This document shows, in pieces, positions 1,621 through 20,605 of a stretch of 24,124 nt of DNA; the first letter of the stretch is position 1; each line of letters opens with the position of its first letter. Source of the stretch: Candidatus Fraserbacteria bacterium (lineage in GTDB: Bacteria > Bipolaricaulota > Bipolaricaulia > RBG-16-55-9). The position numbers and the translations under genes were made by a program. Below the pieces are notes generated by a model that ran no database searches, was not told where the DNA came from, and saw only the letters and a list, made by a program, of their open reading frames with translations. Where the stretch lies: the NCBI GenBank assembly GCA_037443265.1, contig JBBIOR010000016.1:16707-40830 (forward strand), given 5' to 3'.

Positions 1621-2453
1621 AGGGAGAGAGCGTGCCTGAGGGACAAGCGTTTTCTTTTGGGCGATTCGCACGCCAGTCGTTCTATCAGGCGGTGAACGCT
1701 CGTTTGGTGGATCTGGTCAGCCTTTCTCCTGGGGTTCGTGTGCTCGATTTGGCCTGCGGGACCGGAGCCGTCACGAAGCTCATCCTCGAAAAACTTGAGG
1801 GAGTCCGCCAGAGCTGGGTGATCGCCATGGATACCTCGGCGCAGGCCTTAGAGCTGGCCCGCCAGGAGCTTGCACATATCAAAACGGCCACCGTAAAGTT
1901 CATGCAGGGTCGTGCGGAAGAACTCTCTCAGAAGCTCAAAGAGACTGTAGATGCTGTGATTTTGTGCAATGCCATCCACCTGATGGAGGAGAAGGAGCGC
2001 GTGCTCAGCGAAGTTAAACGCATCTTAAATCCCAGAGGGGTCTTTGCGTTTAACACCACCTTCTTTGCGGGAGCGCAGCCTCCGGAGACGGAGCAGTTCT
2101 ACCGCCGCTGGATGATGCGCGCCATTCGATTATTGAAGAGCCATCACAGCCTCCAGCCTACGCGGGAGAAGGTGAGCGCCCGCCGCCAGCTCACCGCAGA
2201 ACAGTACGAAGAGTTGCTCCGCCGACAGGGCTTTGTGATTCGTCAGGAGCAACTCGACCCTGTGGGAGTCCCCCTCGAAGGCTGGCTTGGCATTAGCGAA
2301 TTCCGCGACTTCATTCAGGGGGCGCTCCCTGGCGTGCCGCTCAAAGAAGCCTGTCAAGCGCTCCAGGAGGCCGTAACGCAGGTCTTCCAGGAGCTGGAGC
2401 TTGAAGCCGTCCCACGCCTGTGGCTTCAGGTCGTCGCGGTGCGGCCGTGTTAG
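1617..2453 (+). CDS. Class I SAM-dependent methyltransferase
   Basis: VLDLACGTG motif I and RILNPRGVF; ATGA overlap with the acyP stop. Confidence 0.88.
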   Translation: MKGESVPEGQAFSFGRFARQSFYQAVNARLVDLVSLSPGVRVLDLACGTGAVTKLILEKLEGVRQSWVIAMDTSAQALELARQELAHIKTATVKFMQGRAEELSQKLKETVDAVILCNAIHLMEEKERVLSEVKRILNPRGVFAFNTTFFAGAQPPETEQFYRRWMMRAIRLLKSHHSLQPTREKVSARRQLTAEQYEELLRRQGFVIRQEQLDPVGVPLEGWLGISEFRDFIQGALPGVPLKEACQALQEAVTQVFQELELEAVPRLWLQVVAVRPC

Positions 2454-2731
2454 CGCCGCTTGGCGAGCGCCTCCTTGAGCTGCTTGCCCGCGCGGAACTT
2501 GGGTACCAACTTGGCGGGCACCATCATCTTGCGCCCGGTCTGCGGGTTCATCCGCTGGGTGGCCTTCTGCTGTCGGGCCTCAAAGGTGCCGAAGCCGGTG
2601 AGCGTCACTTTCTCTCTCCTCTTGACCCGGTCGACGATCAGGCTGATCGCCGAATCGACCACCGCTCGCGCGTCCTTCTTGGAGAGCTTGGCCTTCTTGG
2701 CCAATCTCTCGATGAACTCCTGCTTAGTCAT
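2450..2731 (-). CDS. hup: DNA-binding protein HU
   Basis: MTKQEFI...GFGTF...NPQTG...PKFRAGKQLK HU signature. Confidence 0.95.
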   Translation of the reverse strand: MTKQEFIERLAKKAKLSKKDARAVVDSAISLIVDRVKRREKVTLTGFGTFEARQQKATQRMNPQTGRKMMVPAKLVPKFRAGKQLKEALAKRR

Positions 2732-2764: not shown

Positions 2765-2794
2765 ATTATACACTCAAGCTGGTGGGAAAGTCAA
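2765..2794 (-). promoter_or_regulatory. Near-consensus sigma70 promoter for hup
   Basis: TTGACT (2794-2789)-18 bp-TATAAT (2770-2765). Confidence 0.75.
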
Positions 2795-2823: not shown

Positions 2824-2832
2824 TGCTATAAT
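2824..2832 (+). promoter_or_regulatory. Extended -10 promoter for the small basic ORF
   Basis: TG-C-TATAAT, followed by the SD GGAGGTG just upstream of ATG 2884. Confidence 0.65.
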
Positions 2833-2883
2833 CCTTGAAGGAAACGAGAGAAGAACCCAATCGGAGCCGGGAGGTGTGAGTCG

Positions 2884-2997
2884 ATGGCCCGAAGTGGCGC
2901 CCGCAAGCGCACCAAGATGAAGAAGCGCCGCAAGGAGCGCAAGATGGGCAAAAAGAAGGGCAAGCGCGGCACGAGCCAGCCCCAATCCCCTAGCTAA
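2884..2997 (+). CDS. Small Lys/Arg-rich protein (37 aa), not in the ORF track
   Basis: MARSGARKRTKMKKRRKERKMGKKKGKRGTSQPQSPS*; strong SD, its own extended -10, and AAG/CGC-rich codons. Confidence 0.8.
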   Translation: MARSGARKRTKMKKRRKERKMGKKKGKRGTSQPQSPS

Positions 2998-3524
2998 CGA
3001 GTTCGATAGATCTCCGGACGGATTCGGGGAAGAAGCGCCATCAGAACGGCCTGTTCTGTGAGCTGAGTGCGATCCATAAGGCCCTTAGAAAGATGGCCAA
3101 TGGCTCCTAGGCGATGGCCGATCCTTTCAATGCCGGTCTGCTGGCTCATGATCTCCCCCACGGTCTGGCCTGCCCGCACGGCCTGGATCACCCAGTCAGG
3201 GTAGACAAACCCCGGCCCATGGCCCACCGTAATCTGACCCTCTGGGTCGATCACAGCACAGAACTGCACGTCAAAATAGACGCCCAGCGTCTCGTTCCAG
3301 ATGAGGCCGGCCTCGATGCCGACCCCAAAATCCGCCTCTTTCAGCGCGGCCTTCGCCCGAGCCATCGCGCCCCGGCAGACCTCTGCGCCCAGCGGCTGAG
3401 CCGGAATCTCCAGGGAGACTTCCACGAGCTTCACTTCCAGCGGAGCACAGGGAAAGACGCGGGCAAAGACCCTTCGCACGGCCTCTTGCTTGACAGGATT
3501 CGACGAGCCCACGTGAACGCGCAT
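2994..3524 (-). CDS. yjjX: Inosine/xanthosine triphosphatase (YjjX/DUF84)
   Basis: VGSSNPVK, QP, GVGIEAG and GAIGHLSKGLMDR motifs; SD GGAGG. Confidence 0.9.
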   Translation of the reverse strand: MRVHVGSSNPVKQEAVRRVFARVFPCAPLEVKLVEVSLEIPAQPLGAEVCRGAMARAKAALKEADFGVGIEAGLIWNETLGVYFDVQFCAVIDPEGQITVGHGPGFVYPDWVIQAVRAGQTVGEIMSQQTGIERIGHRLGAIGHLSKGLMDRTQLTEQAVLMALLPRIRPEIYRTR

Positions 3525-15629: not shown

Positions 15630-15702
15630 GGGCCCATAGCTCAGGGGTCAGAGCAGCCGGCTCATAACCGGTCGGTCGCAGGTTCGAATCCTGCTGGGCC
15701 CA
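15630..15702 (+). tRNA. tRNA with CAT anticodon, most likely tRNA-Ile2 (lysidine type); CCA not encoded
   Basis: Full cloverleaf: acceptor GGGCCCA/TGGGCCC, D arm GCTC/GAGC, anticodon arm GCCGG-CTCATAA-CCGGT, T arm GCAGG-TTCGAAT-CCTGC. C4-G69/C5-G68 fit Ile2 and there are no fMet hallmarks. Confidence 0.93.
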
Positions 15703-16249: not shown

Positions 16250-16938
16250 CGCTCCCCGCAATAGAGAAACGCGATTCCTCCGGCCAGCGGCAGGCTCTTG
16301 ACCCCGCGCAGGCCTGCCTGACTCATGCGTTCTTCAATCTCTGTGGGAGAGGGAAACTCGCAGATTGAGCGATAGAGATATTGATACGCCTCGCGCGAGC
16401 CTGTAAGAAGCGCCCCCACACGGGGAACGATCTGCTTGAGATAGAAGAGATATATCCGCCGCCAGAGCGCGCGCGAGGGCAGCGCGAACTCTAACATCAG
16501 CAATCTCCCCTTAGGGTTCAGCACCCGCGCCAGCTCAGCTAATCCCGCCTGGATGTCCGGGAGATTTCGCAAACCGAACGCGATGGTGACGAGGTCAAAG
16601 GTCTCTGAAGCAAAGGGCAGCCGCATGGCGTCTGCCTCGATCAGCAGAGCTCTGGGAGCACAGCCTAGCGCCTGGAGCTTCTTCTGCCCAACGGAGAGCA
16701 TCTCCCAGGAGAGATCGACGCCCCACAGGCTCAGTGGCTCCTGCTGACATGCGCATGCCAGCAGGAGATCCGCCGTGCCCGTGCAGACATCTAAGACTCT
16801 CTCAGCGGGGCGCGGAGCGGCCCATTCCACAAGTCGCCTGCGCCAGCCGCGGTCCAGATTCCAGCTCAAGACGTGATTGGCTAGGTCATAGCGGGAGGAG
16901 ATGCGCGAGAACATCCGCGCGATCTCAGAAGAATTCAT
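16246..16938 (-). CDS. menG: Demethylmenaquinone methyltransferase (UbiE/MenG)
   Basis: MF..IS.RYDLAN..LS, LDVCTGTAD, IAFGLRN and AYQYL..SI motifs; start set at MNSSEI. Confidence 0.9.
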   Translation of the reverse strand: MNSSEIARMFSRISSRYDLANHVLSWNLDRGWRRRLVEWAAPRPAERVLDVCTGTADLLLACACQQEPLSLWGVDLSWEMLSVGQKKLQALGCAPRALLIEADAMRLPFASETFDLVTIAFGLRNLPDIQAGLAELARVLNPKGRLLMLEFALPSRALWRRIYLFYLKQIVPRVGALLTGSREAYQYLYRSICEFPSPTEIEERMSQAGLRGVKSLPLAGGIAFLYCGER

Positions 16939-18278: not shown

Positions 18279-18734
18279 ATGCGTCTAGTAGTTCAGCGGG
18301 TCCGAGAAGCGCGTGTGCGCGTCGAAAATGAGACCGTTGGAGAGATCGGGCCTGGGCTTCTGGTGCTCGTGGGCGTGGGCCGCGAGGACAGCGAATCCGA
18401 GGCGGCGGCTCTGGCTGAGAAAGTCGTCCATCTGAGAATCTTCGAGGACGAGCAGGGCAAGATGAATCGTTCGCTTCTCGAGGTAGGCGGCGAAATTTTG
18501 GCTGTCTCACAGTTCACGCTCTACGGCGATGTGAGCCGGGGCCGGCGGCCCAGCTTTGAGAAGGCCGCGCCGCCCGAGCAGGCGGAAAGAATCTTCGAGC
18601 ATTTCGTCTCGGAGTTGAAAGAATATATGCCTGCGGTGGCCACGGGCCGCTTTCGGGCCAAAATGCAGGTCTTTCTCATTAACGACGGCCCGGTGACCCT
18701 CCTTCTAGAAAGTTGCCCGCAAGCCCCGACTTGA
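18279..18734 (+). CDS. dtd: D-aminoacyl-tRNA deacylase
   Basis: [19 protein letters not shown] and NDGPVT motifs. Confidence 0.96.
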
Positions 18735-18772: not shown

Positions 18773-18961
18773 ATGAGCACTCCGAAATATCGACGATCGC
18801 GCTCTGAGAAGCGCAAGCATCGCGGAGGGTGGCGCTTGCCGCGGGTGACGGTGAGCGAATGCTCGCGCTGCCATGAGCCCAAACTCCCCCACCGAGTCTG
18901 CACCCATTGCGGCTACTATGGCGATTTGGAGGTCTTACACATCACCGAAGAGGAAGAGTAG
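18773..18961 (+). CDS. rpmF: 50S ribosomal protein L32 (zinc-ribbon C+ form)
   Basis: PK.R.S basic N-terminus and CSRC...KLPHRVCTHCGYY. Confidence 0.93.
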   Translation: MSTPKYRRSRSEKRKHRGGWRLPRVTVSECSRCHEPKLPHRVCTHCGYYGDLEVLHITEEEE

Positions 18962-19401: not shown

Positions 19402-20541
19402 TCACAAAGGCTTCCGTTGGCCAGCGTGGTGGGACCGCCGGGCGATCGCTTCATCAAGGAGCTGAAGAGCTTCCCCCCGCTGATCTAATAGCCGACGGCC
19501 CGTTTTTTTGAGCCCCTCCTGCAGCAGCCCATGCACAACAAAGGGGAAGACGGCGGTGACCTCCGTAAAGACGTACTGCGAGTTCTTCGCGTAATCCGCG
19601 GAGGTCTTGCCCCACGTGTGGGCCTCCCCGGCCGTACAAGAACTCAGGCCGCCGTTTTGAACATGGGCGTCGCAGAACTGCACGTCGCAGTCGTAGCCTT
19701 CGACGTCCAGCCCGCAGATTTGAGAGAGATACGGCTCCGGCTGGAGCGAGTAATTCTTGGGTACCCCTCCCCCCAAGATGATGATGCTCAACTTCTTACT
19801 CCAGCGTGACTTCGCCAGCCAGTGATAGGCCCCGAATTCATGAATGTCTGTCTCAATGTCGATGGCGAATTTGAACTTTTTGCCCAAACGCCGCTTCATG
19901 TACGCCACGTTCAAATGAATAGACGCATCCTGAGGGGCTCCGCAGAAGATCGGAACGCGCTGCAAATGGGCCTGCACGAGCAGACTGCGCGACTGCTGGG
20001 GAGCGCGCCCAAAACGCTCTCGCTCGAGCTCTGCCACATATTGGCCCAGCAGATCATGAAACTCCGGCGTGGTCATGCGCCTCTGGAAGGGCTTTTTGAG
20101 GAGAAGCTCTTGCAGAAATTTATCGGTGCGATAGAGGTCTTCCTCAGGGAAGATGAGGTCATAGATGCGCGTGTAGCCCTGCCGGCGCAGCCAGCGATCA
20201 TCCGTGTTGGGATCGATCGCGTAAAACTCGCCCCGAAGCGTGCGCTGCAGATCATGATAGATGTTCGCTCCGGTGGTAGTAAGAATATCTATGATGCCTC
20301 TTTGAATGAGCGGGATGAGGCAGGTGGTGGCCAGATCGGCCGGGGTCATCGCCCCGGAGACGGCCAGGACGATCGTGTGATCCTCCCGGATCATCCGTCG
20401 AATGATCTCATAGGCTGTCGCCAGCTCTCGGCCCACAAAGGCCTTGAAGGCCTTCTCTATGAGCTCTGCGGTGGTCTCATCTCCCCGGATGGCTTGAGTT
20501 TCGACTTTCGGGCCCAAAAAACGCCTCTCTTTGCGTGCCAT
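19402..20541 (-). CDS. Deoxyhypusine synthase-like protein
   Basis: SGAMT, TTGANIYHD, RIYD, ILGGGVPKN and GGLSSC...EAHTWGK motifs; AAGGAGG SD before ATG 20541. Confidence 0.9.
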   Translation of the reverse strand: MARKERRFLGPKVETQAIRGDETTAELIEKAFKAFVGRELATAYEIIRRMIREDHTIVLAVSGAMTPADLATTCLIPLIQRGIIDILTTTGANIYHDLQRTLRGEFYAIDPNTDDRWLRRQGYTRIYDLIFPEEDLYRTDKFLQELLLKKPFQRRMTTPEFHDLLGQYVAELERERFGRAPQQSRSLLVQAHLQRVPIFCGAPQDASIHLNVAYMKRRLGKKFKFAIDIETDIHEFGAYHWLAKSRWSKKLSIIILGGGVPKNYSLQPEPYLSQICGLDVEGYDCDVQFCDAHVQNGGLSSCTAGEAHTWGKTSADYAKNSQYVFTEVTAVFPFVVHGLLQEGLKKTGRRLLDQRGEALQLLDEAIARRSHHAGQRKPL

Positions 20542-20605
20542 GAAGGACCCTCCTTCCAGATGTGACAAGAGCTTAGCGACCATGGCTGGATTTTCCAATG
20601 GCACG

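Follow-up and report, generated by a model that had tools for sequence, protein, structure and literature searches.

Among the small, basic ribosomal proteins that are restricted to particular lineages are bTHX and bL37, with 24–27 residues; Sra (RpsV), a stationary-phase ribosome-associated protein of enterobacteria, has 45 residues. bS22, bL37 and bL38 were recognized as components of the ribosome only once structures had been solved. For bS22 of Borrelia (bb0822), the published account describes a protein of 30–33 residues, 61% of them lysine or arginine (K/R), which is helical with a bend and occupies the h2/h27/h44/h45 pocket of the 16S rRNA, touching H68 of the 23S rRNA (PMC10618245). 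As presented there, bS22 routinely goes unannotated, is conserved across Borrelia and is an essential-gene candidate; the same account describes mycobacterial bL37 as small and helical, with a position close to the peptidyl transferase center (PMC10618245).

Here, we describe a small open reading frame (sORF) from an uncultured member of the Bipolaricaulota (Ca. Acetothermia), whose product can be compared with these proteins. It shares with bS22 (PF08213 type; Bacteroidota/Borrelia type), eL41 and mS38 that it is tiny (30–37 residues), helical by prediction, extremely basic and usually unannotated, and with bTHX and bL37 that it is small, basic and lineage-specific. Likewise, Sra is by its general description small, basic, taxonomically narrow and non-essential, as we propose for the sORF product, although it is less basic than the latter. 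We find that the gene is new, real and lineage-specific. It stands for a new family within a known general type, and its product does not rank among the core ribosomal proteins.

The sORF between hup and yjjX as a protein-coding gene

The window, i.e. the whole stretch of 24,124 nucleotides analyzed here, covers positions 16707–40830 of contig C16 in a 1.69-Mb assembly of 44 contigs that is 88% complete (genome G000). Its hup and yjjX genes are separated by a spacer of 262 nt, on the + strand of which an ATG ORF (2884..2997) encodes the peptide MARSGARKRTKMKKRRKERKMGKKKGKRGTSQPQSPS: 37 residues, 17 of them lysine or arginine, with a single glutamate, followed by a TAA stop. This reading is given by the ORF list and the sequence, and is accompanied by the pN/pS values and the homologs in four other genomes described below. 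Between the preceding in-frame stop and the ATG at 2884, there is no earlier in-frame start. A Shine–Dalgarno (SD) motif, GGAGGTG (2870..2876, +), is located 7 nt 5′ of the ATG; SD-like motifs precede the sORF in all five carrier genomes (G000, G001, G005, G006 and G024), and the one in G001 and G006 is identical.

On one side, the sORF is divergent from hup (2450..2731, −), a gene of the HU family (Pfam PF00216, Bac_DNA_binding, E 6e-30). The consensus scan assigns hup a promoter, TTGACT-18-TATAAT (2765..2794, −), which stands back to back with the sORF leader, is kept in G001 and G006 and is recognizable in all eight aligned genomes of the family. On the other side, the sORF is convergent with a gene for an NTPase of the DUF84/YjjX type (2994..3524, −; NCBIfam NF003039, E 4e-60; Pfam PF01931), whose TAG stop (2994–2996, −) has two nucleotides in common with the TAA stop of the sORF (2995–2997). 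The same 2-nt overlap is found in G001 and G006.

The preliminary description of this locus, made from the DNA letters alone, had reported the ORF with its 17 lysines and arginines among 37 residues, the SD GGAGGTG, a TGnTATAAT element and the stop overlap with yjjX, and all of these are present as read. The TGnTATAAT, an extended −10-like element (TGCTATAAT; 2824..2832, +), remains a candidate promoter for G000 only: it is not conserved in the syntenic loci of G001 and G006, neither of which has a consensus promoter for the sORF, and it has no accompanying −35 element. Since no acceptable −35 lies at 16–18 nt, the consensus scan calls no promoter on the + strand at the sORF.

An Rfam search of the window yielded no RNA family at the sORF, its sole match being a tRNA at 15630–15702. 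Terminator-like hairpins of the yjjX strand are located at or inside the sORF (2925–2940 and 2856–2871, −, in the window; L003 1604–1623, −; L002 1491–1503, +), in numbers not above those in shuffled sequences. The termination of yjjX and the coding sequence of the sORF may share sequence.

To judge by composition, the sORF stands out in its own genome. The assembly contains 40,037 start-to-stop ORFs of 25–70 residues, of which 26 have a K+R content of at least 40% and three have an SD-like motif as well. The sORF ranks first among these three and is the only intergenic one, the other two lying inside longer genes in a different frame or on the other strand. It uses major codons (AAG for 9 of 10 lysines, CGC for 6 of 7 arginines and GGC for 4 of 4 glycines, at genome-wide shares of 0.69, 0.39 and 0.46, respectively), and a relaxed tblastn search found no paralog in the genome. 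A separate lysine-rich stretch on contig C11 (from 1949, +), 23 residues with 57% lysine at the end of an open frame, may be the C-terminal tail of a longer protein.

In a DNA alignment of G000, G001 and G006, the 5′ leader varies, and conservation is seen in the SD, the ATG and codons 1–30. Within these codons, the variable columns comprise seven synonymous third positions and three first or second positions, the latter resulting in two replacements (M12A and M21K); for this excess of third positions (7 of 10 variable columns), our own binomial estimate is ~0.02. Low pN/pS values of 0.10–0.12 (Nei–Gojobori) are obtained for the sORF frame in this close trio, compared with 0.06–0.17 for hup. 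Four of the other frames have pN/pS values of at least 1 or no synonymous changes at all. The fifth frame, antisense and wobble-matched, is uninterrupted in each of the five carriers and has a pN/pS of 0.13–0.29 in the close trio, a low value that is predicted by its geometry.

From the close trio alone, antisense coding would remain compatible with the data, and it is the distant homologs in G005 and G024 that decide the strand in these sequence comparisons. There, residues are kept by means of different codons, for instance R3 by CGA, AGG and CGG and R7 by CGC, AGA and CGC; these switches between arginine codon families preserve arginine in the sense frame only. For five genome pairs taken together, there are 90 identities in 145 positions and a BLOSUM62 sum of 438 in the sense frame, and 71 in 140 and 268 in the best antisense frame. 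It is thus very unlikely that the locus is non-coding in the sense direction and owes its conservation to an antisense ORF, to the 3′ end or terminator of yjjX, or to regulatory DNA of hup. The open, slowly evolving antisense frame and the hairpins would suit such an origin; both the ATG and the SD are conserved and agree with the sense frame, the ends of the antisense ORF vary (36, 48 and 75 residues), and neither yjjX nor hup lies beside the homologs in G005 and G024.

Judged from these comparisons, the sORF is a genuine protein-coding gene, as the preliminary description had supposed, and is under purifying selection over its first ~30 residues. The selection signal comes from few sequences, as the family is known from five genomes and a few metagenomic variants. 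The exact peptides of G000, G001 and G006 are absent from ~15 billion predicted proteins, which fits a gene that has not been called and indirectly supports the earlier statement that it had been missed.

Distribution and genomic contexts of the family

A six-frame search of 41 relatives recovered the peptide in G001 (89% identity) and G006 (86%), in both cases between hup and yjjX, as well as in G005 (63%) and G024 (60%). In a profile search of 184 genomes of the phylum, the sORF was found in five, the same five carriers. Further weak matches in other genomes turned out not to be homologs on inspection, and a scan of genome contigs returned only the two distant carriers already known. Of the close relatives, G001 and G006 carry the sORF, and five genomes of the same family do not. 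In these five, hup and yjjX are adjacent with a spacer of 111–167 nt, compared with 261–262 nt in G000, G001 and G006, i.e. the sORF is absent from five of the eight aligned family genomes in this comparison. The sORF is dispensable or replaceable in close relatives. A core ribosomal protein would be expected to be nearly universal in its lineage; the presence of the sORF in just 5 of 184 genomes and its absence from the same spacer in five of eight family genomes argue against a protein of this kind and agree better with an accessory factor.

In the two distant carriers, the genomic context is different. The homolog in G024, a peptide of 43 residues, follows a DJ-1/PfpI gene and precedes a cysteine-rich ORF and a Phd/YefM antitoxin gene. 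The cysteine-rich ORF (L005 1654..1869, +) encodes 71 residues, begins 28 nt after the sORF and belongs to no Pfam family; 3′ of it lie the Phd/YefM antitoxin gene and an ORF of 140 residues. In G005, the homolog follows a gene for a Zn-dependent oxidoreductase and reads without a stop into a domain named YjbJ (UPF0337) by JGI. This in-frame fusion of the polybasic module with a YjbJ-like domain of ~70 residues (L004 1258..1596, −, equivalent to L021 3001..3339, +) yields a protein of 112–127 residues, which occurs in three sequence variants in the G005 lineage, one of them bearing the JGI name YjbJ, and is labeled hypothetical by NCBI. The name of the partner domain is that of JGI, as no Pfam CsbD match was obtained for it at E ≤ 0.1. 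The window peptide has no CsbD/YjbJ-type domain, and the YjbJ-like partner was not found in G000, G001, G006, G024 or G002; the fusion therefore says little about the function of the sORF in the window.

Beyond these genomes, relatives are scarce. A profile search of 1.84 billion representative sequences gave a single cluster, and in 5.8 billion clusters a word-indexed search identified four proteins, 43–46 residues long and all of the G024 type; together with the count of 5 in 184 genomes of the phylum, this bears out the earlier view of a lineage-restricted protein. The G024-type homologs (P0001–P0003 and P0007–P0009; 43–46 residues) share a C-terminal tail, N-x-P-I-[QK]-D-A-W-T-[ED]-P, which is absent from the window type. 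A metagenome scan with profile A1 matched 281 stretches to the pattern, with zero relatives among them, and a degenerate pattern for the N-terminal DNA returned four metagenomic loci: one peptide of the G006 type, one N-terminus of uS11 and two spurious matches. The family is narrow, patchy and changing in genomic location, and within the sequence data searched, it is confined to a few lineages of uncultured Bipolaricaulota (Ca. Acetothermia). For ribosomal proteins, such patchiness and such shifts of location would be out of the ordinary.

Possible roles of the sORF product

The family members follow the signature M-[AS]-R-S-(G)-x-R-x-x-T-K-x-K-x-R-x-K-x-R-x-x-G-x-x-K-G-x-R-G-[TS], in which S4, T10, G22, G26 and G29 are invariant non-basic residues among basic ones. 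With a K/R content of 46%, the window peptide has a net charge of +16, and it ends in a Ser/Pro/Gln tail. A single helix comprising residues 6–27, followed by a short loose tail, is predicted for it (AF2, pLDDT 72), and a helix comprising residues 3–25 for the G024 homolog (AlphaFold, pLDDT 75.5), although a lone predicted helix at a pLDDT of ~72 carries little information. Such a helix is likewise an uninformative query for Foldseek, where the G024-type model had 0 matches in the PDB; the ESM Atlas offered no usable match to the peptide.

Our preferred reading, for which belief and doubt are about balanced, is that the sORF founds a tiny orphan family and that its product is an accessory polycationic nucleic-acid binder. 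The helical peptide, with its charge of +16, would most likely act by binding to a polyanion, the probable target being structured RNA (the ribosome) or else DNA. It would do so as an accessory, non-core factor, acting in the manner of bS22, eL41 and mS38 or of Sra without detectable homology to them; the closest working analogy is most likely that of bS22, eL41 and mS38, i.e. of a helix inserted in an RNA pocket. The invariant residues S4, T10, G22, G26 and G29 suggest a defined binding site rather than a generic coating of the protamine kind. The module forms the N-terminal extension of a YjbJ/CsbD-like, stress-type domain in the G005 lineage, and this fusion suggests that it may be a portable arm for the binding of nucleic acids, with a possible link to stress. 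To judge from the sequence, the product may have a ribosomal or nucleoid role. Structured RNA or the ribosome ranks first among the targets as a tentative possibility, which includes true membership in the bS22 family.

A nucleoid target ranks next and is unlikely. The product would in this case be a protamine-like or HU-tail-like protein that condenses or coats DNA and is co-regulated with the divergent hup. Other phyla have HU-family proteins with lysine-rich extensions, and the extreme positive charge of the peptide would be in keeping with such a function, as would the back-to-back promoter regions of the two genes. The link to hup that the preliminary description had drawn is, however, limited to the synteny in three genomes (G000, G001 and G006), since the homologs in G005 and G024 sit elsewhere, and the five relatives without the sORF keep the hup–yjjX arrangement all the same. 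Moreover, the position-specific conservation of Ser, Thr and Gly exceeds the needs of a generic DNA coat.

We also doubt that the product belongs to the flexible genome as an accessory peptide with a stress, toxic or regulatory function, for instance a small polycation resembling a toxin or an arm that can be detached from stress proteins, which would have spread patchily through transfer between co-occurring relatives. The patchy distribution and the changing location are what this explanation would lead one to expect, and some of the neighbors are suggestive, namely the DJ-1/PfpI gene, the Phd/YefM antitoxin gene and the 140-residue ORF in G024, and the Zn-dependent oxidoreductase gene and the fused YjbJ-like domain in G005; the overlap with the convergent yjjX would, in addition, permit antisense interplay. 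Most type I toxins have a hydrophobic segment, however, whereas the sORF peptide has none, and the contexts examined have no conserved cognate partner gene in common. A precursor of a RiPP or a membrane-active peptide was dropped from consideration, given the lack of a hydrophobic segment and of a conserved neighbor gene in these contexts.

Compared with known families, the sORF peptide gave nothing significant in Pfam, NCBIfam or PHROGs, the Pfam search having been run on seven family members at E ≤ 10. Among 177,635 distinct PDB sequences, searched with phmmer and with a profile at E ≤ 10, the only matches were eukaryotic S19 (E 2.1–2.7) and Elongator protein 1 (E 5), with the proviso that the composition filters of HMMER may mask weak matches of low complexity. 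The earlier impression that the sequence belongs to no clear known family is thereby upheld. The comparison with bS22/COX24 and Thx profiles that had been proposed along with it gave the same answer: in the five carriers, the sORF is matched by neither PF08213 nor PF17070. For PF17070 (bTHX), one control genome passes the cut-off, and the matches of this profile elsewhere in the carrier genomes are all below it. The peptide has no PDB match to bL37 either, in a searched set that may not include a bL37 chain of at least 20 residues. One homolog, P0008, bears the JGI name 'ribosomal protein L19E'. We rejected a relationship with eL19/L19e, as PRK08570 scores 8 bits against a cut-off of 131 and the best E-value for Pfam L19e_C is 0.077, with matches in three of seven members; the name looks like a mis-annotation that reflects compositional resemblance of the sequences.

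Of the described proteins, bS22 deserves the closest comparison, and a strongly diverged true bS22 of the Bacteroidota/Borrelia type, located in the h2/h27/h44/h45 pocket and unseen by profiles, is an improbable alternative. Size, charge and helical prediction are similar, and bS22, too, is described as routinely unannotated (PMC10618245). By eye and with no statistic attached, the first 12 residues of the sORF product, M-A-R-S-G-A-RKR-T-K-[MVA], resemble the N-terminus of bS22 from F. johnsoniae and Borrelia, M-P-[SC]-G-..-RK.-..-K-[VI], as given in the same account (PMC10618245). The likeness does not extend further: when the bS22 sequences shown there are compared by eye with our alignment A4, their central T-H-K-R-K-K is absent from the sORF family, which has no histidine, and the glycine-rich K-G-x-R-G-[TS] end of the sORF product, which precedes its Ser/Pro/Gln tail, has no counterpart in bS22. 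The K/R content is 46%, as opposed to 61% in the Borrelia protein described. PF08213 (COX24_C/AURKAIP1, bS22) matched neither at the sORF in a six-frame search of the five carriers at E ≤ 10, where one control genome passes the cut-off, nor any of the seven family members in a Pfam hmmscan at E ≤ 10, and no bS22 was among the PDB chains matched at E ≤ 10. Finally, the sORF is patchy within its phylum (5 of 184 genomes, and missing from the spacer of five close relatives), whereas bS22 is, according to the published account, conserved across Borrelia and an essential-gene candidate.

Small ribosomal proteins in the phylum and significance of the family

The general likeness of the sORF product to bL34 (rpmH, PF00468), an equally ultra-basic protein of ~45 residues, draws attention to the small ribosomal proteins of these bacteria. 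The H-G-F and R-M-x-T motifs of bL34 are absent from the sORF. PF00468 matches in none of the five sORF carriers and in all ten bacterial control genomes. Over the whole phylum, bL34 exceeds the cut-off in 50 of 184 genomes, which belong to families f9 (47 of 50) and f3 (3 of 4) only, with none in f1 (0 of 8) or f5 (0 of 18); it is undetectable in G000 and in 134 of the 184 Bipolaricaulota genomes. Six sub-threshold matches in f8 and f10 proved spurious. In G000, tblastn, unfiltered hmmsearch and a six-frame search with the phylum's own bL34 revealed nothing real, a bL34-like stretch on contig C6 being an out-of-frame artifact within an oxidoreductase gene. No rpmH is located upstream of rnpA in this genome (locus L049, G000:C3:77504-80818); the gene in that position is divergent, encodes 444 residues and, by eye, looks like serS.

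Metagenome-assembled genomes (MAGs) can lack genes for ribosomal proteins, as has been reported (PMC9723686). As internal controls for this effect, we recovered bL36 in all five carriers, and bL32 in 31 and uS11 in 33 of the 35 genomes of the order. rnpA was present in five of five carriers. In a COG survey, the loss of L34 is reported for two lineages only, certain Clostridia and Planctomycetes; Acetothermia goes unmentioned there (bioRxiv 10.1101/2021.01.31.429008). In the literature searched, no paper links L34 with Bipolaricaulota or rpmH with Acetothermia, and the papers found for small proteins of Acetothermia/Bipolaricaulota appear to concern ecology and genomics only.

That the sORF product is a non-homologous stand-in for the bL34 that its lineage lacks is highly unlikely and was rejected: size and charge are near those of bL34, which is missing from all five carriers, including the six frames of G000, but 129 of the 134 genomes without a bL34 match are also without the sORF, so that there is no complementary pattern, and hhalign gives a probability of 0.7% for our sORF alignment A3 against nine distinct bL34 sequences of the phylum.

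Other small ribosomal proteins were noted along the way. bS21 (PF01165) was matched in none of the 35 genomes of the order and in 6 of 10 bacterial control genomes. In the window itself, rpmF (bL32) is found at ~18782-18937 (+; PF01783, E 1.2e-16), after a D-Tyr-tRNA deacylase gene (18279-18731), and a gene of the deoxyhypusine synthase family follows at 19405-20604 (−; PF01916, E 1e-59), beside amidase and alanine racemase genes. uS11 (G000:C5:35770-36099, −; L060-L089) is N-terminally short, with frames of 109–123 residues that start M-A-K-K-x-L-x-R-A-R-[IV]-H-V-H in 26 of the 33 matched genomes of the order, a count that leaves out seven longer stop-to-stop frames. A metagenomic uS11 (L029) has 130 residues and a longer basic N-terminal arm. 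An origin of the sORF by fission of the uS11 gene was rejected, because uS11 is short with or without the sORF and the resemblance was forced by the search pattern.

To return to an accessory binder of nucleic acids as the preferred reading, its most specific form would be a new, lineage-restricted accessory ribosomal protein, a helical polycation seated in an rRNA pocket and acquired in an order where neither bL34 nor bS21 is detectable and uS11 has a short N-terminus. In this specific form, we consider it rather unlikely. If true, it would offer a snapshot of ribosomes in the course of gaining and losing tiny proteins.

Annotation systematically misses tiny polybasic proteins. The sORF offers a clean and testable case in a phylum that had no cultured members until very recently; a first isolate has been reported (bioRxiv 10.1101/2025.11.21.689855). 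It combines purifying selection, the lack of a known family, one fusion and a lineage with an unusual set of small ribosomal proteins. Should its product bind the ribosome, it would document that a ribosomal protein was gained recently; should the product bind DNA or act in stress, it would represent a new class of bacterial polycation. Either way, the family deserves to be added to the annotation models of the phylum.
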